Below, piece after piece: positions 14,809-45,224 of a DNA stretch of 64,000 nt (positions are counted from its first letter, which is position 1; each line of letters opens with the position of its first letter). The notes below the pieces were generated by a model. The model did not search any database. It was not told the origin of the DNA and worked only from the letters and a program-made list of their open reading frames with translations. The stretch is taken from positions 2,208,001 to 2,272,000 of the forward strand of contig OZ242005.1 in the NCBI GenBank assembly GCA_965204725.1, in the 5' to 3' direction. Source of the stretch: Candidatus Latescibacterota bacterium (GTDB lineage: Bacteria; Latescibacterota; UBA2968; UBA8231). Made by a program: the position numbers and the translations under genes.

Positions 14809-15987
14809 TCAATCCGGGGATACAACGCCGCAATAATCGGCCGCCGCCAGCGCGTACACTTGCGCCGCCCTTTCCAGCCGATCCACCTCTACCCACTCCA
14901 CATCTGCATGCGCCGTCTCGTTTGAGGGGCCGTAGTAAAAGGTCGGCACCCCCGTCCCATGGACGTATAAATTGGCGTCCCCCACAATCCGCATCCCCAC
15001 CAACTCCGCCGCTTGGCCGGTCACCTGCTCGTGCGCTCGTCCCACCGCTTGCACGGCCGCATCGCTGGCGGGCGTCTCAAAAGGCTCGCGCTCGTGCTCC
15101 ATCTCAATCCGCAGGCTCAACCTTCCAGCCTCGGCCAACGGCCGCGCTAGCTCTTTTAGCTCGGCCAATACCTCCGGCGCGGTGCGCCCCGGCAGCCAAC
15201 GCCGAGTGCCCGTCAGCGTACAGCACAGCGGCGTGCGATTGAAATAGTCGCCCCCGGCGACCATGCCTAAGTCGATTCGCTCGGGACCGGCGAGCGCGTG
15301 GGCTGGCCCAGCGTCGAGCGCGCATTGACACTGGTGGATCTGCTCAATGAGCGCCCCCACAAAGCGGAGCGGGTTCTCCGCAAAGGGCACGTACTGGGTG
15401 TGCTGACCGCCAGCGGCCGATTCGAGGGTGATGGTAAAGACCATGGACCCCATGCTCATCACCCACAGCGCGTCGCGCCCCTCGACAATCAAAATTCGGT
15501 CGCCGCCAATCCGGCCGCTGTTGCGATCGGCGATTAGGGCCAGCGGTCCGTCCTTGCGCGCTTCGGGTTCCTCGTGCCCCACAATGGCCGTCAGCCACAA
15601 GTCGCCCCGCAATTCCACCCCGCTTTCCAAAAGTGCCTTAACCGCGCCCAACGCCGCGGCCATGCCCCCCTTCATGTCGGTCGCTCCCCGTCCGTACACG
15701 CGGTTGCCTTCGCGCCGAGCGGGCGGGCAGGCCCCTACGGGAATGGTGTCGAGATGACCGTTGAGCATCAGCGCGGGGCCATCCCCTCGGCCGGCGATGT
15801 GCGCGTAGAGGTTGTTGCGCCCCGGAGTCACTTCGCGCACATCGACCGCCAAGCCGACCTCGCGCATCATGTCCTTATAGGCGCGACACACTTCGGCTTC
15901 GGCCATGGTGACGCTGTAAATATCGACCAATTCCCGGGTCCGCTCGGCCACCCATTCTCGGTCAATCGCTGCGATTAATTTTTCCAT
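14809..15987 (-). CDS. M20 metallopeptidase / ArgE-like deacylase
   Basis: LNGHLDT, GRGATDMKGG, HEE and AH..VE motifs. Confidence 0.88.
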   Translation of the reverse strand: MEKLIAAIDREWVAERTRELVDIYSVTMAEAEVCRAYKDMMREVGLAVDVREVTPGRNNLYAHIAGRGDGPALMLNGHLDTIPVGACPPARREGNRVYGRGATDMKGGMAAALGAVKALLESGVELRGDLWLTAIVGHEEPEARKDGPLALIADRNSGRIGGDRILIVEGRDALWVMSMGSMVFTITLESAAGGQHTQYVPFAENPLRFVGALIEQIHQCQCALDAGPAHALAGPERIDLGMVAGGDYFNRTPLCCTLTGTRRWLPGRTAPEVLAELKELARPLAEAGRLSLRIEMEHEREPFETPASDAAVQAVGRAHEQVTGQAAELVGMRIVGDANLYVHGTGVPTFYYGPSNETAHADVEWVEVDRLERAAQVYALAAADYCGVVSPD

Positions 15988-37702: not shown

Positions 37703-38707
37703 CTAGAACTGCCCACTGCGGGATTCGTAGCGGGTCGGCTTACCCAAGCTCGGGCCGCCGGCCATGACCCACTCGGCCACCGCGTGCAGGATATGATCCG
37801 GGCCGACGCGCGGGCGACCAAATTCCGCACACAAGCGCCGACTATCCCCCAACAGGGCGTCTGGGGCCGGCGCGCCCGTAAAGCGGGGCGTCCTACCCAT
37901 GATTTTCCCTAGTTGTTCGGCGAGATCGCGCACGGATAAGGTCGCCGGCCCCGTCAGGTTGATGACGTTGGCCGGGCTGTGGCACAGGGGGAAGAAACGG
38001 CACAAATAGGCGTTGGCGTCGCCCTGCCAAATTTGGTTGACGTACCCCATAGTCAGATCAATCGGCTCTTGCTGCCACACCTTATCGGCGAGATCGCGGA
38101 TGATGCCGTAGCGCGGCTCAGTGGCGTAAAACAGCCGCACAATCAGCAAGGGCGTCCCCCGCATCCGCGACGCGTACTGGGCAATTCGCTCCCCGCCCAA
38201 GCGCGATTGGGCGTATTCGCCCACCGGGCCTAAAGCCCCGTCTTCGGCGGCCCCCGGCCCGGGAGCCTTGGAATACGCGTACACATTGCCCGAGCTGACA
38301 TAGACGATCCGCGCCTGTGCATAGCGTTCCATCACCGCGCCGGGCAATGCGGCATTCACCGCCCACGTCGCGTCTTCATGGCCGGTGGCCCCAAACTTAA
38401 ACCCGGCGAGCAAGAGGACATTGGGCGCGTCGGGCAGTTTTTTCAGCGCCTCGTCGGCGAGCAAGTCGCAGGCGACGGTTTGCACACCCACGCTCTCCAA
38501 GTAGCACCGCTTTTCTGCATCCGCAAAGCGCGCCACTCCCACCACCTGCTGCGCCCCGGCCCGCACCAACAGCTCGGCCAGCGTTGGTCCCATCTTGCCG
38601 CTAACCCCCAGCAGCAGAACCGGTCCGTCCAACTGACGCACGGCCTCCACGACTTCAGGGGTCGGGGTCGTCATGTCGTCTATGAGCGCGGCTTCACGGA
38701 CCATCAT
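37703..38707 (-). CDS. NAD-dependent epimerase/dehydratase
   Basis: LLGVSGKMG, SSGNVY and EYAQSR motifs; start moved to ATG 38707 (AGAGAGG RBS). Confidence 0.87.
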   Translation of the reverse strand: MMVREAALIDDMTTPTPEVVEAVRQLDGPVLLLGVSGKMGPTLAELLVRAGAQQVVGVARFADAEKRCYLESVGVQTVACDLLADEALKKLPDAPNVLLLAGFKFGATGHEDATWAVNAALPGAVMERYAQARIVYVSSGNVYAYSKAPGPGAAEDGALGPVGEYAQSRLGGERIAQYASRMRGTPLLIVRLFYATEPRYGIIRDLADKVWQQEPIDLTMGYVNQIWQGDANAYLCRFFPLCHSPANVINLTGPATLSVRDLAEQLGKIMGRTPRFTGAPAPDALLGDSRRLCAEFGRPRVGPDHILHAVAEWVMAGGPSLGKPTRYESRSGQF

Positions 38708-38859
38708 AGTACCTCTCTTTCGCGCATTGTACGCCCTCGGCGGCAAGGCCGCGTTTATTATAGCCCTCTTCTATCGTATCGACAATCAGATGTGCGCTGG
38801 GCCAAACACCCCCGTATTGGTCTTAACGGGGCGAGAAAACGCGGCCTGCGACGCCGTAG

Positions 38860-38904
38860 AAAAATCGTATAAAATCGTATATAATACGATTTTATACGAT
38901 TTTT
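38860..38904. promoter_or_regulatory. Perfect 21-bp inverted repeat made of tandem AAAATCGTAT units; candidate activator/operator site
   Basis: aaaaatcgtataaaatcgtat-ata-atacgattttatacgattttt in a divergent intergenic region. Confidence 0.6.
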
Positions 38905-38972
38905 TATGGTTCCTCATTGCGCGTGTATGGGCTGAAAAAAAGAAAATTAAATTTTATAACTCCTATATTTTC

Positions 38973-38999
38973 AATCCTTTAGGATCATCCTAAAGGATT
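38973..38999. promoter_or_regulatory. Perfect 13-bp inverted repeat upstream of the sigma54 promoter
   Basis: aatcctttaggat-c-atcctaaaggatt. Confidence 0.5.
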
Positions 39000-39021
39000 T
39001 TTTTGTGCGTACCCTGATTTT

Positions 39022-39037
39022 TGGCACGCAATTTGCA
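39022..39037 (+). promoter_or_regulatory. Sigma54 (-24/-12) promoter
   Basis: TGGCAC-GCAAT-TTGCA, exact TGGCAC-N5-TTGC consensus. Confidence 0.8.
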
Positions 39038-39047
39038 TACATAATTC

Positions 39048-39187
39048 GTAGAAACAAGGCCGATGAGGAAAGAAAGGAGGGGATACGAACTTTAATATCG
39101 GCTGTTTTTCAACACTCACTTCACTCACTTCCAGTGCCGTAGCGGTATCGGGCCGCGGGCGCACTGGGCAACTTAGGAGAAAAAATC
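39048..39187 (+). ncRNA. Candidate structured 5' leader RNA, copy A
   Basis: Homologous to 44220-44348, with covarying stem CCAGTGC/GCACTGG versus CCAGTAT/ATACTGG. Confidence 0.5.
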
Positions 39188-39469
39188 ATGCAGATCTTGA
39201 GGGAGTTCTTCACGTCGTCGAGCGGGTTGGCGCCGGCTCGGCAGGGTTTGGCCCTTGGTTGGGTCATCAGTGCCCTCACGGGGATCACCGTCCTGCTCGG
39301 GGCGAAGGAAGCCGAAGCCGGTAAGTGCGAGAACCGCACTTCTGAGGACTGCGGTTACAATGCTTGGTGCGATGATGATACGGACGGGGCCGAGCCGCTC
39401 AGGTGCTGCGAAGTTACACGGCACCGTGACTGTAGCTTTTCTACAGGAGATTGCTACTGCACCGCCTAA
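39188..39469 (+). CDS. Small secreted cysteine-rich peptide (8 Cys in a 49-aa core)
   Basis: AGGAG RBS; hydrophobic leader ending AEA; core GKC...CC...CYCTA. Confidence 0.7.
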   Translation: MQILREFFTSSSGLAPARQGLALGWVISALTGITVLLGAKEAEAGKCENRTSEDCGYNAWCDDDTDGAEPLRCCEVTRHRDCSFSTGDCYCTA

Positions 39470-39526
39470 GACAACCTCAGCTATAGACCAATAGCTTTAG
39501 GGTCGTTGCTTAGGCTAAGAAGCTGA

Positions 39527-39570
39527 AGGGTCCGGCTCAGGATCTATTCTTGAGCCGGTCCTCTTTTCCT
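39527..39570 (+). terminator. Stem-loop, likely intrinsic terminator or attenuator after the peptide gene
   Basis: ccggctcagga-tctat-tcttgagccgg followed by a pyrimidine/T tract; a second hairpin lies at ~39463-39515. Confidence 0.5.
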
Positions 39571-39630
39571 TCGTACTTACGGACCGTGTCCAGTTTTCTC
39601 TTTTGGAAATGTCTCTATGGAGGTGATAGC

Positions 39631-41808
39631 ATGTTGAAGTTCGCCGTTGTTGTCGCTGTTGTGCTGTGGGGTGGCCCCGCCGGGGCGATTCGGTGGGAGT
39701 TCGACGATGGGACGACGCAAGGATGGTTTGCCAAAGAAGATCGTGTGTGGGGTGGGGAGCGTGAATTTCATCAGTTTCCGGGGGTGGTTGAAGATGGCGT
39801 GTGGCGGATCGAGGTCGATCCCGCCGTCACCCAGGGGAGTTCCTCTACGCCGAAGGTCGAATTGATTTCGCCGACCATTGGGTACGATTCGGGTCTGTTC
39901 GACCACGTCCGCATCCGCTGCCGCACCGTCCACCACCGCCCTACAATGGGTAAGTTTTCGGTCGCTTGGACCAACGAGCACAACGCCCTGCCCTCAGGTT
40001 GGGATCTTGCGTTTGGAATCCGCTCACAAGATATACTCTATACTACCGAGTGGCAGGAAGTGGTGGTTGTCTTGGCAGGTCGCGACGACAAGAGATGGGA
40101 GGGTATTCTAAAAGATATTCGGCTCGGTTTTTCACTAGATCGTTGGGAAGCCGAGCCGGCGTCCGATGTGGTTGAGTGGTTTGAGATAGACTGGATCGAG
40201 TTGACCGGCGTGGAAGAGTTGCTACAGGGGGAACTGCCACCGCCGCCGGTAGCGTATCTTCGCTGGGATGCGGCTGGGCTTTTTGCGCCGCCGCTGTTCT
40301 ATCCGATTGCGCCGGGCACCGGGCACGATAAAGGCCTTTTAGGAGGGCCGCCGGGTGTCTTGACGGATTTGGATGGCGATGGGGCCTTAGACCTGTTTGC
40401 TGTTTGGAGTGCCCCGTACGAGGAAGAGGATCAGCCGGGGTATCAAACGGGCTGGCTGATGGCCCTCAACGACGGGCACGGGGTCTTGGAACTGAGGCGC
40501 ATAGAGGAAGTAGCGGGCGCAGGGCTGCTTAGTACCGATGCGGAAACTGGAAGTATAACCGTCACCGGGGTGCTCTTAGATGCGCTAGGGGCGGACTTGA
40601 ATGGCGATGGCCAAGACGAAATCGCGTTGTATGCAAGCGCCGGGGAGGAAGCGGCAGTAGAAGTGTGGTCTATCGGGACGGACCTCCAAGTCGAGGTGCT
40701 GGTGCGAATTGAGGATCGAGATCTCGTGGATGCCGCGGATTGGGATGGCGACGGCCGGGTCGAACTATTTGTTGAGGGGAGCACCTTAGAGGTGTGGGAT
40801 GTGGAACAGGGCGTGTGGACGTCCTCTGAGGTGGCCGAGGCCCAACACCATGTGGCCCATCGGGTTGGCGATTTTACCGGCGATGGGGTGCTCGATGTGG
40901 TGTGGACACCGATTGTCGGGCAGGCGAAGACGTGGGGGGTGGGAGCCTTGGGCGATGAGTTTCAGCGAAACGAGGTCTTTGAATTCGAGGCTTGGAATCC
41001 GCTGTCAGAGGTCGGCAATGAGGCCTGGGGTCCGCTGTCAGAGGTCGGCAATGAGGGTTGGAAGCCGCTGTTAGGGGTAGGCGATTTTGATGGCGATGGA
41101 CAGGTGGATGTACTCACCGAGTTCACTTGGGATCGACTTGAAGGGAGTAAGGGGCTCGTCTGGCTGAGCAATAGTACTGGCGGCGCAGAATCGGCGGTGT
41201 TGTATGATGATCGGCTGTTTCGACGCTCGCCAGTGCTGATGCGCGATCTCAATGCCGATGGAGTTGACGACTGGGTGTTTATCGGCGGAGACCGCGCTTC
41301 GGGCTTTGGGGTGTTCGTCGAATGGGGAGGGGGCGTCCAGCCGACCCAAGACGGGGAGCGGCATCGGCTGACCGGCAGTGCGACCCGTGTGCTGTCCGGG
41401 GATATGGATGGCGACGGCGATGAGGACTTGGTGGTGTTGGATCCGATCTGGGGTGGGGTGCATGTCCTCAAGAATTCGCTGGCTTCGACGCCGACGGCAG
41501 TACAGATGTCGGCGGCTGCGCGACCGGCGCAGTACCGGCTGGGCGACAGCTATCCCAACCCGTTCAATCCGGCGGTGGTGTTGCCCCTTGATTTGGCTAA
41601 GGACGCGGCGACGGTGTCGCTGCGGGTACATGACGTGTTGGGGCGTCGGGTGCGTCAGGTGTGGCAGGGGTCGCTGGGGGCAGGTCAGCATCGTTTTACT
41701 TGGGATGGCCGCGACGAGGCAGGCAGGGCGGTGGCGGCGGGCGTGTATATCTATCGGGTCGAGATGGACGGGCGGGTGGAAGCGAAAAAAATGACCAAGC
41801 TGCCGTAA
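39631..41808 (+). CDS. Secreted FG-GAP/VCBS-repeat protein with C-terminal FlgD-Ig/T9SS-type domain, paralogue 1
   Basis: GGAGGT RBS and ATG 39631; signal peptide; multiple DxDGDG repeats; YPNPFN...WDGRDEAG...GVY. Confidence 0.85.
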   Translation: MLKFAVVVAVVLWGGPAGAIRWEFDDGTTQGWFAKEDRVWGGEREFHQFPGVVEDGVWRIEVDPAVTQGSSSTPKVELISPTIGYDSGLFDHVRIRCRTVHHRPTMGKFSVAWTNEHNALPSGWDLAFGIRSQDILYTTEWQEVVVVLAGRDDKRWEGILKDIRLGFSLDRWEAEPASDVVEWFEIDWIELTGVEELLQGELPPPPVAYLRWDAAGLFAPPLFYPIAPGTGHDKGLLGGPPGVLTDLDGDGALDLFAVWSAPYEEEDQPGYQTGWLMALNDGHGVLELRRIEEVAGAGLLSTDAETGSITVTGVLLDALGADLNGDGQDEIALYASAGEEAAVEVWSIGTDLQVEVLVRIEDRDLVDAADWDGDGRVELFVEGSTLEVWDVEQGVWTSSEVAEAQHHVAHRVGDFTGDGVLDVVWTPIVGQAKTWGVGALGDEFQRNEVFEFEAWNPLSEVGNEAWGPLSEVGNEGWKPLLGVGDFDGDGQVDVLTEFTWDRLEGSKGLVWLSNSTGGAESAVLYDDRLFRRSPVLMRDLNADGVDDWVFIGGDRASGFGVFVEWGGGVQPTQDGERHRLTGSATRVLSGDMDGDGDEDLVVLDPIWGGVHVLKNSLASTPTAVQMSAAARPAQYRLGDSYPNPFNPAVVLPLDLAKDAATVSLRVHDVLGRRVRQVWQGSLGAGQHRFTWDGRDEAGRAVAAGVYIYRVEMDGRVEAKKMTKLP
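40987..41085 (+). repeat. In-frame 33-bp tandem repeat x3
   Basis: EAWNPLSEVGN / EAWGPLSEVGN / EGWKPLLGVGD; single copy in paralogue 2. Confidence 0.85.
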
Positions 41809-41902
41809 GGAGTGGTTGAAACGTGAGCCGGTGAGAGGGCATAAGACCGCCTAAATCATCTATACCTGACTGGAGCCGAAATTGTTGCAAAGGAGATGTG
41901 CT

Positions 41903-44053
41903 ATGCTACTGCTATTCGCCGTTGTTGCCGCCGTGATGCTGTGGAACGATCCCGCCGCGGCGATCAAGTGGGAGTTCGACGATGGGACGACGCAAGGGTG
42001 GTCTGCCACAGAAGGACTTATAGGGGTGGGAGGGCCACGTGAAACGAACCTGTTTCCGGGCGAGGTCGACGAAGGCGTGTGGCGGATCGCGGTCGATTCC
42101 TCCAGCACCAGAGGGCGGGATTCCCAGGCGGATTTCAAATTGATTTCCCCGACTATCGGGTACAATTCAGACCTGTTCGACCGGGTCCGCATCCGCTGCC
42201 GCACCGTCCATCATCGTCCTACAGTTGGTCATTTTTCGATCGCTTGGACCAACGAGCACAACGCCTTGGCTGCCGGTGAGGATCTAGGAGACCCGCTGTT
42301 GTCGCTCAGCCGGTTTGAAACCTCCGTCCAAGAAATAGTCTATACCACTGAGTGGCAGGAAATCGTGCTGTCGTTGGCCGGTCAAGACGAGAAGATATGG
42401 GAGGGGTTATTGAAAGATATTCGGCTCCGTTTTCTTCTCGATACAGAGGTAGATCTTTGGTCGGCGGCGGCCGTGGTTGAGGTTGCGTGGTTCGAGGTTG
42501 ACTGGATCGAGTTGACCGGCGTGGAAGGGCTCTTACAGGGGGAACTGCCGCCGCCCTACGTAGAGTATTTTCGCTTGGACGGGATCGGCCTTTTTGCCGC
42601 GCCGGCGTTCTATCCGATTGCCCCGGGCATAGGGGGCGGTACTTATGGAGAGGAGGTCGGCGTCTTAACGGACTTGGATGGCGATGGCGACTTAGACCTG
42701 TTCGCCGTCTGGGAAGATGGTCAGATAGGGGTGGGGACTAAAGATGGCTGGCTGATGGCGCTCAATGACGGGCACGGGGCCTTGAAACTAAGGCGCACAG
42801 AGGAAGTAACGGCCACCGGGGAGACGAGTACGGATGAGGACACAGGCGTGACGAGCAGTTTCGGGGTGGTCTTAGGGGTGCTGGGTGCGGACTTGACCGG
42901 CGATGGTCGCGACGAAATCGTGCTATCTACAAGCAACGAGGGAAAGAGAACAGAAGTGTGGTCTATCGGGCCGGAACTGCAAGTCGAGGTGCTCGTGCCG
43001 ATCGCGGATCGGTGGGTCGCGGATACAGCGGATTGGGACAGCGACGGTCGGGTCGAATTATTTGTGCAGAATGTTACGTATGAGGGCAGCACGTTAGAGG
43101 TCTGGGATGCAGCCGAGGGCGGGTGGACCGCCGAGGAGGTAGCGGCCGACCCAAACTATGCGCCCAGTCGGGTCGGCGATGTTACTGGCGATGGGGTCTT
43201 AGACGTGGTGTGGGTGCCGATCGCCGGGCGGTCAAACAGGTGGCTTGTGCAGGCTTTGGGCGGGGACTTGCAGCAAGGCGAGAGCTTTGCATTCGGCGAG
43301 GGGTATAGGCAGCTATTGGGGGTGGGCGATTTTGATGGCGACGGGCAGGTGGATTTCCTCACCGAGTCCACACGGGATCAATTTGAAGGGAGTAAGGGGC
43401 TCGTCTGGCTGAGCAAGAGTACTGGCGGCGCAGAATCGGCGGTGCTCTATGATGATCGGCTGTTTCGACGCTCGCCGGTGCTGATGCGCGATCTCAACGG
43501 CGATGGAGTTGACGACTGGGTGTTTATCGGCGGAGATCGTGCTTCGGGCTTTGGGGTGTTCGTCGAATGGGGGGGACGTGTCAATCCGACCCAAGACGGG
43601 GAGCGGCATCGGCTGCAAGGCAGCGCGACCCACGTGCTGTCTGGGGATATGGATGGCGACGGCGATGAGGACTTGGTGGTGTTAGACCCGATCTGGGGTG
43701 GGGTGCATGTCCTCAAGAGTTCGCTGGCTTCGACGCCGACGGCCGTGCAGACGTCGGCGGCAGCGCGACCGGCACAGTACCGGCTGGGCGACAGCTATCC
43801 CAATCCGTTTAATCCGGCGGTGGTGCTGCCCCTCGATTTGGCGACGGACGCGACGGAAGTATCGCTGCGGGTGCATGACGTGTTGGGTCGTCGGGTGCGT
43901 CAGGTGTGGCAGGGGCCGCTAGGGGCAGGTCAGCATCGGTTTGTATGGGATGGTCGCGACGAGGCGGGCAAGGCGGTGGCCGCGGGCGTGTATGTCTATC
44001 GGGTGGAAATCGACGGGCGGGTGGAAGCGAAAAAGACGACCAAGCTGCCGTAA
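41903..44053 (+). CDS. Secreted FG-GAP/VCBS-repeat protein with FlgD-Ig/T9SS-type domain, paralogue 2
   Basis: AAGGAG RBS and ATG 41903; colinear with paralogue 1; near-identical C-terminal third. Confidence 0.85.
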   Translation: MLLLFAVVAAVMLWNDPAAAIKWEFDDGTTQGWSATEGLIGVGGPRETNLFPGEVDEGVWRIAVDSSSTRGRDSQADFKLISPTIGYNSDLFDRVRIRCRTVHHRPTVGHFSIAWTNEHNALAAGEDLGDPLLSLSRFETSVQEIVYTTEWQEIVLSLAGQDEKIWEGLLKDIRLRFLLDTEVDLWSAAAVVEVAWFEVDWIELTGVEGLLQGELPPPYVEYFRLDGIGLFAAPAFYPIAPGIGGGTYGEEVGVLTDLDGDGDLDLFAVWEDGQIGVGTKDGWLMALNDGHGALKLRRTEEVTATGETSTDEDTGVTSSFGVVLGVLGADLTGDGRDEIVLSTSNEGKRTEVWSIGPELQVEVLVPIADRWVADTADWDSDGRVELFVQNVTYEGSTLEVWDAAEGGWTAEEVAADPNYAPSRVGDVTGDGVLDVVWVPIAGRSNRWLVQALGGDLQQGESFAFGEGYRQLLGVGDFDGDGQVDFLTESTRDQFEGSKGLVWLSKSTGGAESAVLYDDRLFRRSPVLMRDLNGDGVDDWVFIGGDRASGFGVFVEWGGRVNPTQDGERHRLQGSATHVLSGDMDGDGDEDLVVLDPIWGGVHVLKSSLASTPTAVQTSAAARPAQYRLGDSYPNPFNPAVVLPLDLATDATEVSLRVHDVLGRRVRQVWQGPLGAGQHRFVWDGRDEAGKAVAAGVYVYRVEIDGRVEAKKTTKLP

Positions 44054-44193: not shown

Positions 44194-44209
44194 TGGCACG
44201 AAACTTGCG
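44194..44209 (+). promoter_or_regulatory. Sigma54 (-24/-12) promoter
   Basis: TGGCAC-GAAAC-TTGCG, at the same position relative to the shared leader as 39022. Confidence 0.75.
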
Positions 44210-44219
44210 TATTTATAAT

Positions 44220-44348
44220 TCGCAACGGCGAGACCGAGACCGACGAAAGGAGGTGAGATAAACCCGTATCGGCTGTTTTTCAACGTTCACTTCCAGTATC
44301 GTAGCGGCAGAGAGCCGCCAACATACTGGGCAACTAAGGAGCAGGATT
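44220..44348 (+). ncRNA. Candidate structured 5' leader RNA, copy B
   Basis: GAAAGGAGG...TATCGGCTGTTTTTCAAC..TCACTTCCAGT..CGTAGCGG..GCCGC..ACTGGGCAACT.AGGAG shared with copy A. Confidence 0.5.
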
Positions 44349-45224
44349 ATGAACTATCGATCCATGCTAATCGTCTGCTTGACGACGCTGGGGCTAGCCG
44401 CCGCTGGCTGGGGACAAGCCGACGGGAAAATAGCGTTTATCTCCGACCGCGAAGGGCACAGTGACGTGTGGATTATGCAAGCGGATGGGAGCAACCCCGT
44501 CAACCTAACCCAAGGACGGGATTGCACTAGCCCGGCGTGGTCCCCAGATGGCGCGAAGATCGCCTACATTGACCGGGGCGAAATCTGGTTGATGGATGCC
44601 GACGGCCGCAATCCGCAACAGGTGACAGACGATTCAGTCGATAAAGCGAGGCTTTGGTGGTCTAACGACGGAAGTAGCATTTACTATATCGCCGCCGTGA
44701 CCGCGCCGCTTGCGGACGAGTGGGACGGCCCTGAGGCCTTCGTTACACAACTAGATGGCAGTGGCTCCTCGCCTGCGGACTGGCGAGAGATGTACCACCG
44801 CTTCCTCCCCGGTCGTTCCCCAGACGGAACCCAACAGGCAATCATCACGTTGTGGGATGGAGGGGGCCATATCCATGCCAATTTCCTTATCCAGAGCAGT
44901 GTCAGCGACCATGAGCATCCGGGTATTCTCCTGCCTGAATCACTCCTGAATAGGCTGACTGCGGAGGAAGATAGGGATAGTTGGCAAACTTTTCCTACTT
45001 GGTCGCCCGACGGCATGAGAATAGCCTTTGCGGCCTTGATCCAGTTCAAGGGTCAGTTTGAGATTTGGGCCGCTGATATAGACGGGGACAACTGGGTCGA
45101 ATTGACTAACGGCTTAGGTGGACATTCTCCTGCTTGGCAACCGATGCTCCCTGTGGCTACGAGCGTCGAGTCCCAAACGTGGGGACGGATCAAATCGCTG
45201 CTTTCAAGTGAGCCTCGTCCGTAG
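44349..45224 (+). CDS. Secreted TolB-like (PD40) beta-propeller protein with C-terminal TWGRIK motif
   Basis: KIAFISDREG; PAWSPDG/PTWSPDG repeats; ATSVESQTWGRIKSLL tail. Confidence 0.82.
   Translation: MNYRSMLIVCLTTLGLAAAGWGQADGKIAFISDREGHSDVWIMQADGSNPVNLTQGRDCTSPAWSPDGAKIAYIDRGEIWLMDADGRNPQQVTDDSVDKARLWWSNDGSSIYYIAAVTAPLADEWDGPEAFVTQLDGSGSSPADWREMYHRFLPGRSPDGTQQAIITLWDGGGHIHANFLIQSSVSDHEHPGILLPESLLNRLTAEEDRDSWQTFPTWSPDGMRIAFAALIQFKGQFEIWAADIDGDNWVELTNGLGGHSPAWQPMLPVATSVESQTWGRIKSLLSSEPRP

Follow-up and report, generated by a model that had tools for sequence, protein, structure and literature searches.

Results

A cysteine-rich precursor gene with its own promoter

The window, by which we mean the whole 64-kb stretch of DNA analysed here, belongs to a genome of 5.43 Mb in two contigs (94% complete, 10% contamination). 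It contains an open reading frame for a 93-aa peptide (39188..39469, forward strand), which is accompanied by the following features.

38861..38903, forward strand: AT-rich inverted 10-mer array (AAAATCGTAT twice, plus its inverse), a candidate locus-specific activator UAS
38973..38999, forward strand: palindrome AATCCTTTAGG-ATCAT-CCTAAAGGATT followed by a T-run, common to the regulon
39022..39037, forward strand: sigma54 -24/-12 element TGGCACGCAATTTGCA, with no mismatches
39048..39187, forward strand: conserved 5' UTR of about 140 nt with two predicted hairpins (30 sequences aligned)
39188..39319, forward strand: leader, residues 1–44, delimited by leader alignment, conservation and -3/-1 statistics
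39320..39469, forward strand: core, residues 45–93 (eight cysteines, scaffold I), and stop codon, from sequence, alignment and model
39532..39558, forward strand: hairpin after the peptide gene, a terminator or attenuator, or an mRNA-stabilising 3' end
39631..41808, forward strand: cognate partner 1, with a signal peptide, CBM-like beta-sandwich, FG-GAP beta-propeller and T9SS type A sorting domain
41882..44053, forward strand: second FG-GAP/T9SS paralogue of the array, from domain searches
44194..44209, forward strand: second sigma54-like element, with one mismatch and the same 5' UTR, upstream of the PD40 gene
44349–45224: PD40 beta-propeller gene

Pfam searches of the eight genes flanking the peptide gene showed an epimerase, a HEAT-repeat protein, an M81/MlrC peptidase and a PD40 protein, along with two FG-GAP/T9SS proteins and one unknown protein. 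In agreement with the initial annotation of this locus, none of these neighbours is a radical SAM, LanM, YcaO or peptidase-transporter gene, nor is there an immunity gene or exporter among them.

That annotation had described an open reading frame with a ribosome-binding site, a 44-aa leader ending in AEA and an eight-cysteine core, all of which are present in the sequence: AGGAG lies at 39175–39179 with the ATG 8 nt further on, and the cysteines of the 49-aa core are spaced C-x7-C-x5-C-x11-CC-x7-C-x6-C-x-C. The gene is real, as judged from 159 homologues in a large protein database, eight cysteines that are invariant among 36 same-scaffold sequences, and the codon-position 1/2/3 entropies of the leader (0.38/0.27/0.89 over 35 distinct nucleotide versions). 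Sixteen of the 44 leader residues, the start methionine and 15 others, remain invariant despite synonymous change, indicating that the amino-acid sequence of the leader is selected, well beyond what a Sec signal needs.

The leader combines two kinds of sequence signal. Its n-region contains the invariant residues E6, F7, S10–S12, G13, L14, P16, R18 and G20, and is followed by a hydrophobic helix (L21–G38) and an A-x-A at positions 42–44 (AEA). By sequence, n-, h- and c-regions with small residues at -1 and -3 predict a Sec signal peptide; across the triplets listed, position -1 is Ala without exception, and position -3 holds A, G, T or V in all but one (DKA), so that the A-x-A fits predicted cleavage by signal peptidase I. 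Within the same leader, R18-Q-G20 stands directly before the hydrophobic segment, as in class III signals, and this [RKH]-x-[GA] motif is kept in distant members of the family; the +5 residue of the class-III-like site is Trp, not the Glu of pilins. Domain searches found no T9SS type A sorting domain in the 93-aa peptide.

A lineage-restricted family with nearly invariant leaders and hypervariable cores

Nine clear members of the family and one marginal member were identified in the genome of the window. Two close paralogues have nearly identical leaders and different cores, with six and four cysteines, which is the pattern of conserved leader and variable core that the initial annotation had proposed to look for. 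Divergent members are clustered at 4.872–4.893 Mb, some as fusions with a T9SS sorting domain (TIGR04183, 37.7 bits). None of the 159 homologues carries a Pfam domain or a name, and no family for the peptide was found in NCBIfam. A leader-only profile retrieved 76 representative clusters among 1.84 billion proteins, and all members sampled were either small cysteine-rich proteins or fusions to a T9SS domain. Relatives are labelled as Candidatus Latescibacterota MAGs, apart from one labelled Gemmatimonadetes. Within the phylum, the peptide profile matches 24 of 168 genomes, all in one family, and 20 of 30 genomes of the window's own genus, with up to 19 matches per genome.

Across the family, the cores are hypervariable while the leader is nearly invariant. 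Several cysteine frameworks occur; that of the window is found in 36 of 120 proteins, and a second framework is commoner. The number of cysteines is even in 143 of 147 family sequences (eight in 117), which fits complete disulfide pairing. The earlier view of a secreted, disulfide-rich peptide with a leader/core architecture is supported, and the open reading frame at 39188..39469 encodes, in precursor form, a secreted mini-protein for which four disulfides are predicted and which belongs to a lineage-restricted family. Our literature search returned no description of the peptide family or of the operon introduced below, nor of A24 enzymes acting with cysteine-rich peptides. In the portion of PMC12993501 drawn on here, FG-GAP, T9SS and sigma factors go unmentioned, and the corresponding portion of PMC12426817 deals with cysteine-bridged peptides of sponges (barrettides, asteropsins) without mention of Latescibacteria.

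An AlphaFold2 model of the core based on 36 sequences (pLDDT 84–88) has a beta-alpha-beta-beta arrangement. Foldseek found no PDB match to the peptide model at E<=0.001, and the best VIA Z-score was 3.6. For the core, VIA rows were tied at Z 2.8–3.0 and comprised laterosporulin (Z 3.0, rmsd 4.0 over 43 residues), the SSV1 A100 DNA-binding scaffold, monellin, RpfB and a stefin; two archaeal pilins appeared among the weak rows for the whole peptide model (Z 2.1–2.2). The knottin or defensin-like fold suggested previously is not borne out by these searches, as neither a knottin nor a defensin appears among the VIA or Foldseek results, and the CxC of the CS-alpha/beta motif is present (C89, C91), whereas helix 59–64 holds C61 alone, leaving no CxxxC in the helix. 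In its length of about 49 aa, its several predicted disulfides and its modelled topology the core recalls laterosporulin and the CS-alpha/beta defensins; it departs from laterosporulin3 and the defensins in the Z of just 3.0, the empty Foldseek search and the missing CxxxC helix motif.

A sigma54 promoter with a fixed upstream architecture

The element TGGCACGCAATTTGCA is the sole zero-mismatch match to TGGCAC-N5-TTGCW within the 64-kb window. When one mismatch is allowed, four matches are found against 2.32 expected, which is not beyond chance, so the weight of the element rests on its conservation: a -24/-12 element lies 136–178 nt ahead of the ATG in 27 of 37 related loci, bearing out the sigma54 control proposed earlier. 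The genome encodes rpoN (Sigma54_DBD, 199.9 bits) and an enhancer-binding activator (Sigma54_activat, 1.8e-61, with HTH_8). Two full-length activators of about 1,050 aa were found, combining Reg_prop repeats, Y_Y_Y, a sigma54 AAA+ domain and an HTH. One of these propeller-type activators adjoins the A24 operon described below. The promoter adjacent to the second matches that of the window through the UAS, the palindrome and the -24/-12 element, and on this sequence likeness the activator at C1:2184479-2187673 is probably the one that serves the window promoter, acting in trans. More widely, an activator gene ends no more than 1.5 kb upstream in 13 of the 37 related loci.

The palindrome CCTTTAGG-n-CCTAAAGG with its T-run occurs at six sites in the genome, at five of which the sigma54 element begins exactly 46 nt after the palindrome start; at the sixth, the -12 is degenerate. 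The five sites lie at the window peptide, at the peptide of locus L002, at a peptide-less FG-GAP array, at the A24 operon and, separately, at a rearranged second copy of the A24 operon promoter. Among the related loci the palindrome is present in 16 of 37, and 15 of these have a sigma54 element, always at offset 46. We considered whether the palindrome is a plain terminator of the upstream gene, a reading rejected at this locus in view of the divergent orientation of that gene and the fixed offset to the promoter. Further upstream of each promoter are long inverted arrays of 10–11-mers whose sequence differs between loci. The array type at 38861..38903 recurs upstream of FG-GAP arrays at C1:2170842, 2184381 and 2193848, and a different 10–11-mer array occupies the equivalent position at the A24 operon and at L002.

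Besides the true RBS AGGAG, the 5' UTR contains an internal SD-like GAAAGGAGG and an anti-SD-like CACTTCC, and the same 5' UTR precedes the PD40 gene at 44349. We also evaluated it as a structured riboregulator. Its sequence is strongly conserved, whereas covariation is weak (compensatory changes in just 5 of 22 predicted pairs; covariation term -1.05 from 30 sequences), so that a structure is not claimed, and an Rfam scan of 38700–39700 gave nothing close to a gathering score. Downstream, the terminator-like hairpin noted initially is present at 39532–39558, and strong hairpins of differing sequence (dG about -20 to -34 kcal/mol) follow the stop codon in most related loci.

The peptide gene is followed by that of a predicted FG-GAP/T9SS partner

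The peptide had been described as stand-alone. This is incorrect, as a cognate FG-GAP/T9SS protein, predicted to bind the core, is encoded directly downstream, and the peptide gene heads a conserved module: in 33 of 37 related loci an FG-GAP gene starts within 900 nt downstream, on the same strand, and three of the remaining four are fused peptides carrying a T9SS domain of their own. The sorting domain of the window's partner scores 29.8 bits against a TIGR04183 cut-off of 23. Twenty FG-GAP paralogues are encoded in this genome, in arrays, and a peptide gene stands first in several of these; one of the promoter copies drives an FG-GAP gene that no peptide gene accompanies. The N-terminal domain of the partner, which carries no annotation, is modelled as a beta-sandwich (pTM 0.67) that resembles CBM28 (VIA Z 12.2, rmsd 3.1 over 149 residues) and has 46 Foldseek matches at E<=0.001, CBM4 first.

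In a quick IQ-TREE phylogeny of the 36 adjacent FG-GAP proteins, from which the four loci without an adjacent FG-GAP gene were excluded, proteins group by the cysteine framework of their peptide and not by genome. Five label changes were needed, compared with a mean of 16.9 for shuffled labels, and none of 200 shuffles reached five; scaffold II falls in one clade of 11 rows from eight genome records (SH-aLRT 100). Such co-clustering of scaffold and FG-GAP subfamily is also expected from simple co-duplication.

We then consider the predicted complex of partner residues 21–640 with core residues 45–93, which gave ipSAE values of 0.85, 0.84 and 0.85, while the best of three controls scored 0.00. 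The partner was modelled at pLDDT 81–82, at least 88% of contacts agree between runs, and nearly all core residues contact the CBM-like domain, the linker or the propeller. Of 157 solved complexes, 116 reach the ipSAE pass mark, as do 2 of 215 mismatched pairs, counts that hold only roughly here since our own alignments were used; the score itself expresses a model's confidence. At that level, the prediction supports binding of the core to its neighbour.

We regard it as firm that, in the window's genus, the peptide family is genetically tied to cognate FG-GAP/T9SS proteins. Outside the genus the downstream gene changes. In families f3 and f4 a MacB_PCD/FtsX permease follows the peptide instead of an FG-GAP gene; in genera g8, g9 and g18 it is an unnamed secreted family of about 330 aa, and at one locus a PD40 propeller and then a member of the ~330-aa family follow. 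That the gene downstream of the peptide varies by lineage argues for a derived rather than an ancestral FG-GAP partnership, and makes free secretion plausible for some members of the family at least.

In our judgement the best explanation for the peptide gene, held with somewhat better than even confidence, is that its product, directed by the leader and folded by oxidation, binds the neighbouring protein and travels with it to the surface. A serious, though less probable, possibility is that the peptide is a freely secreted bioactive molecule, bacteriocin-like or directed at a host or competitor, which would be exported by Sec, fold in the periplasm and be released by a pump or by leakage, with the FG-GAP genes being co-regulated neighbours rather than encoding binding partners. 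Toxin and antimicrobial peptide families likewise combine a conserved leader with hypervariable cysteine-rich cores, and the hairpin after the gene suggests that the peptide is made in excess. MacB-family pumps expel periplasmic disulfide-bonded peptides, which fits the permease genes of f3 and f4, and a bacteriocin, laterosporulin, is among the weak tied fold rows for the core. Against this, the complex prediction passed strongly with nearly the entire core in contact, FG-GAP adjacency is the rule and the forms without it have a T9SS domain of their own, peptide scaffolds cluster together with FG-GAP subfamilies, and the genes flanking the peptide gene include no immunity gene or exporter.

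A distant operon encodes candidate maturation proteins

Maturation in trans had been raised as an option, and a candidate for it is present. At 4.874 Mb, 2.63 Mb from the window peptide, a sigma54 promoter precedes an operon of four genes, which encode a 381-aa protein of the A24 family, two CxxC thioredoxins that resemble ResA/MauD and an FMN_bind-like protein; sister peptides and FG-GAP genes come next. The A24-like protein matches PF01478 at 26.9–30.3 bits (cut-off 26.5), all seven of its orthologues match the same family (best E 2.7e-9), and the catalytic Asp motifs YTTYTD and GxGDAKL are invariant in the seven aligned orthologues. Its nearest named Atlas clusters are archaeal-type A24 proteins with an Arc_PepC tail; its profile has no match among PDB sequences, and NCBIfam holds no family for it. 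One of the thioredoxins shows a weak MauD match (TIGR02661, 40 bits against a cut-off of 188.6).

The A24-like protein is the sole A24 match in the genome. No match was obtained for T2SSE (PF00437) or T2SSF (PF00482) with all candidates scored, nor for N_methyl (PF07963), and likewise none for DsbA, DsbB or VKOR. Given the completeness and contamination of the genome, the absences of T4P and Dsb components are strong but not absolute. PorU is present (623 bits), together with about 50 proteins that have a T9SS sorting domain.

Across the 168 genomes of the phylum, 21 have both the peptide and the A24-like gene, 3 the peptide only, 11 A24 only and 133 neither. Within the genus, 18 of the 21 genomes with the peptide have the A24-like gene, compared with 0 of the 10 without it. 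Of the 32 A24-positive genomes of the phylum, 28 lack a T2SSE match (10 candidates per genome scored). Linkage in one island and shared genome ancestry partly explain this co-occurrence. We also note the arrangement of genes elsewhere, in 14 A24 regions from 10 other genomes, 8 of which had been scored as 'A24 only'. In nine regions a small ORF with leader and cysteines comes within 230 nt after genes in the order FMNb-Trx-Trx-A24; in two the ORF lies between Trx2 and A24, in one it lies 3.5 kb off and heads an FG-GAP gene, and in two it was not found. Leader-profile E-values of these ORFs lie between 7e-9 and 2.3; where they were weak, the ORF was accepted by its position and by reading of the sequence. 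From these ORFs, all eight 'A24 only' genomes examined do have peptides. The distant leaders follow the grammar [ST]-[ES]-[ES]-G-x3-[PQ]-[RKH]-x-[GA]-[LI]...W...hydrophobic...A-x-A, and FMNb-Trx-Trx-A24-peptide constitutes the conserved core in other genera and families. We regard it as firm that this is a real, secreted, disulfide-rich peptide family under sigma54 control that is genetically tied to the A24/thioredoxin/FMN_bind operon.

A linked A24 peptidase of archaeal type, an [RK]-x-[GA] motif ahead of a hydrophobic stretch of about 18 residues, and the two archaeal pilins among the weak fold rows could together indicate a type IV pilin-like protein, from which A24 would remove residues 1–20 and whose retained helix would anchor a cysteine-rich head in a membrane or filament. 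We consider this very unlikely, as the genome lacks an assembly ATPase, a platform protein and an N_methyl pilin, Trp replaces Glu at +5, and the A-x-A site after the helix is invariant. Moreover, T9SS cargo must be soluble in the periplasm, so the hydrophobic helix should be removed in the fused forms that carry a T9SS domain.

Even less likely is a classical RiPP precursor whose core is further modified (thioethers, radical SAM crosslinks) by enzymes encoded elsewhere. The leader/core architecture with its invariant leader agrees with this idea of the initial annotation, as does maturation by genes that are not adjacent in the window, but the radical SAM, LanM or YcaO chemistry finds no support: no conserved context examined contains a tailoring enzyme, the linked genes encode a peptidase and thiol-disulfide oxidoreductases, and even cysteine counts fit plain disulfides. 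A periplasmic, metallothionein-like metal-binding peptide, suggested by the high cysteine content and the CC and CxC motifs, is barely credible for a peptide that is exported, linked to thioredoxin-like oxidoreductases, even in its cysteine count and modelled confidently as a compact beta-alpha-beta-beta fold, with no typical metal-site His or Cys clusters and no metal-homeostasis genes nearby.

Discussion

Our favoured account, in which the folded peptide travels with its neighbour, may be set out as a sequence of steps. A propeller-type enhancer-binding protein would activate transcription of the peptide gene, and the hairpin after the gene would let the peptide message exceed that of the partner. 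The precursor would insert via Sec, and signal peptidase I would free the core at the A-x-A, after A44. The orphan A24 peptidase is a candidate for cutting the invariant n-region at the class-III-like [RK]-x-[GA] followed by [LI] (G20/L21); since the A-x-A alone would be enough for secretion, A24 may act elsewhere or merely clear leftover signal peptide. In a cell apparently without DsbA, DsbB and VKOR, the two thioredoxin-like proteins may form the disulfides, with the FMN_bind-like protein as a possible electron relay. The folded core would then bind its cognate neighbour, in the space between CBM-like domain and propeller, and, having no sorting domain of its own, would leave on the T9SS signal of the partner as a bound small subunit or a plug of the ligand site.

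A bolder version consists of three claims, which are doubtful when taken jointly: that an archaeal-type A24 GxGD protease has been repurposed as the dedicated leader peptidase of a hypervariable disulfide-rich peptide family, in bacteria that have lost their type IV filament machinery; that its cut, on the cytoplasmic side, frees the invariant 20-residue N-terminal fragment, which then reports export to the TPR protein of the module or to the propeller-type activator; and that the core is the specificity-determining small subunit of a lectin-like propeller protein, constituting the first case of T9SS hitchhiking, with DsbA/DsbB-independent folding by thioredoxin and FMN proteins.

Several known systems share parts of this arrangement. 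Class III signals and their A24 peptidases (PilD, TadV; archaeal FlaK, PibD and EppA) have in common with the family a basic residue, a Gly or Ala, a hydrophobic helix and a linked A24 gene. Unlike in those systems, there is no pilus, T2SS or Tad ATPase here, no platform protein and no N_methyl substrate; the n-region is 20 residues long and invariant, Trp takes the place of Glu at +5, and an invariant A-x-A follows the helix ahead of a hypervariable, cysteine-rich cargo of about 50 aa.

Venom-peptide superfamilies such as the conotoxins comprise hypervariable disulfide-rich peptides behind a conserved signal or leader, with several cysteine frameworks in one family. The window's family has the same three properties, whereas it is bacterial, controlled by sigma54, linked to a peptidase and thioredoxins, and paired with a large cognate protein. 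Small cross-linked subunits on seven-bladed propellers are found in methylamine dehydrogenase (the light subunit, with MauD) and in quinohemoprotein amine dehydrogenase (the gamma subunit); here too the core is predicted, from the complex model, to lie against a beta-propeller, and an operon thioredoxin has a MauD match, a weak one far below the cut-off. In contrast to the amine dehydrogenases, the cores are hypervariable and without the invariant residues that form a cofactor, and the partner is an FG-GAP/CBM-like T9SS cargo. Heat-stable enterotoxin II is exported by Sec, oxidised by DsbA and then passed through MacAB-TolC. From sequence, the peptides would likewise be exported by Sec and acquire periplasmic disulfides, and a MacB-type permease gene follows those of f3 and f4; the window module differs in lacking a MacB-type gene, and the family in its dedicated A24 peptidase and its invariant, extended leader.

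For export of one protein on the signal of another, a precedent exists in the Tat pathway, where a signal-less hitchhiker has been proposed to travel bound to a signal-bearing protein, according to the part of PMC4273604 drawn on here. The case of the window would use T9SS instead, and we found no paper reporting hitchhiking through T9SS in the literature searched. T9SS moves folded proteins, as stated in the portion of PMC9251779 considered, which says no more on hitchhiking.

On a conservative reading, annotation gains an unnamed family and a conserved five-gene operon. If the fuller account is true, A24 prepilin peptidases would gain a substrate class outside the pilins, a question that is directly testable because these genomes offer no competing substrates. 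The family would also be a bacterial counterpart of the venom-peptide gene families of animals, with its own folding machinery, and a source of stable mini-protein scaffolds made by a possible DsbA/DsbB-independent disulfide route. A small protein would leave the cell bound to T9SS cargo, the cognate pair having diversified together, which would suggest that this poorly known, uncultured phylum has a variable recognition surface.

Conserved 5′ UTR and probable regulon membership

Upstream of the peptide gene, the 5′ untranslated region (UTR; window 39048–39187, about 140 nt) is more strongly conserved than the coding leader itself (alignment A8). It contains both a Shine-Dalgarno (SD)-like GAAAGGAGG and an anti-SD-like CACTTCC, which could compete for the true ribosome-binding site. 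Covariation across this region was insufficient for calling a structure. The conserved UTR recurs upstream of a PD40 beta-propeller gene in the window, which is preceded by a second sigma54-like element with one mismatch (element and gene together span 44194–45224) and by just one remaining half of the palindrome common to the regulon; this gene is probably a further regulon member.

At the sixth palindrome site of the genome (G000:C1:4637702–4639849), the −12 element is degenerate, and the ORF that follows begins with a signal peptide and an Fn3-like sequence. This stop-to-stop ORF also matches the sigma54 AAA+ region of the propeller-type activator (6e-98), an odd pairing.

Rearranged and related loci

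The promoter of the A24 peptidase operon is present in a second copy at locus L008 (approximately 15510–15765; G000:C1:4887511 onward), behind which the opening codons of A24 are fused to the end of the gene for the second thioredoxin. This joint is the scar of a deletion or duplication, and its effect is that a peptide gene sits directly behind the promoter copy; a comparable joint, between an A24 tail and a leader, was observed in the metagenome protein P0133.

At locus L003 (1768–3212; G000:C1, approximately 3.150 Mb), the FG-GAP gene 5′ of the four-cysteine paralogue is interrupted, with one ORF of 236 aa overlapping another of 265 aa, and is probably a frameshifted pseudogene. Within an FG-GAP array elsewhere, a 267-aa protein (G000:C1:2177913–2178713) combines a related leader, two cysteine-rich modules and a T9SS domain, with the first module ending in C-x7-C-x6-C, similar to the core of the window peptide.

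Secretion machinery and a shared C-terminal motif

Searches of the whole genome returned no match for DsbA, DsbB or VKOR, nor for a type IV pilus/T2SS ATPase, platform or pilin; despite these absences, PorU is encoded, as are about 50 proteins that carry a T9SS sorting domain. The PD40 protein of the window carries the C-terminal motif (A)VES-x-[ST]-W-[GAS]-R-I-K-[AS] (45180–45224), which it shares with an unnamed family of about 330 aa (loci L049, L054, L059 and L061) encoded after the peptides in other genera. This motif may represent an unrecognised sorting or anchoring signal.
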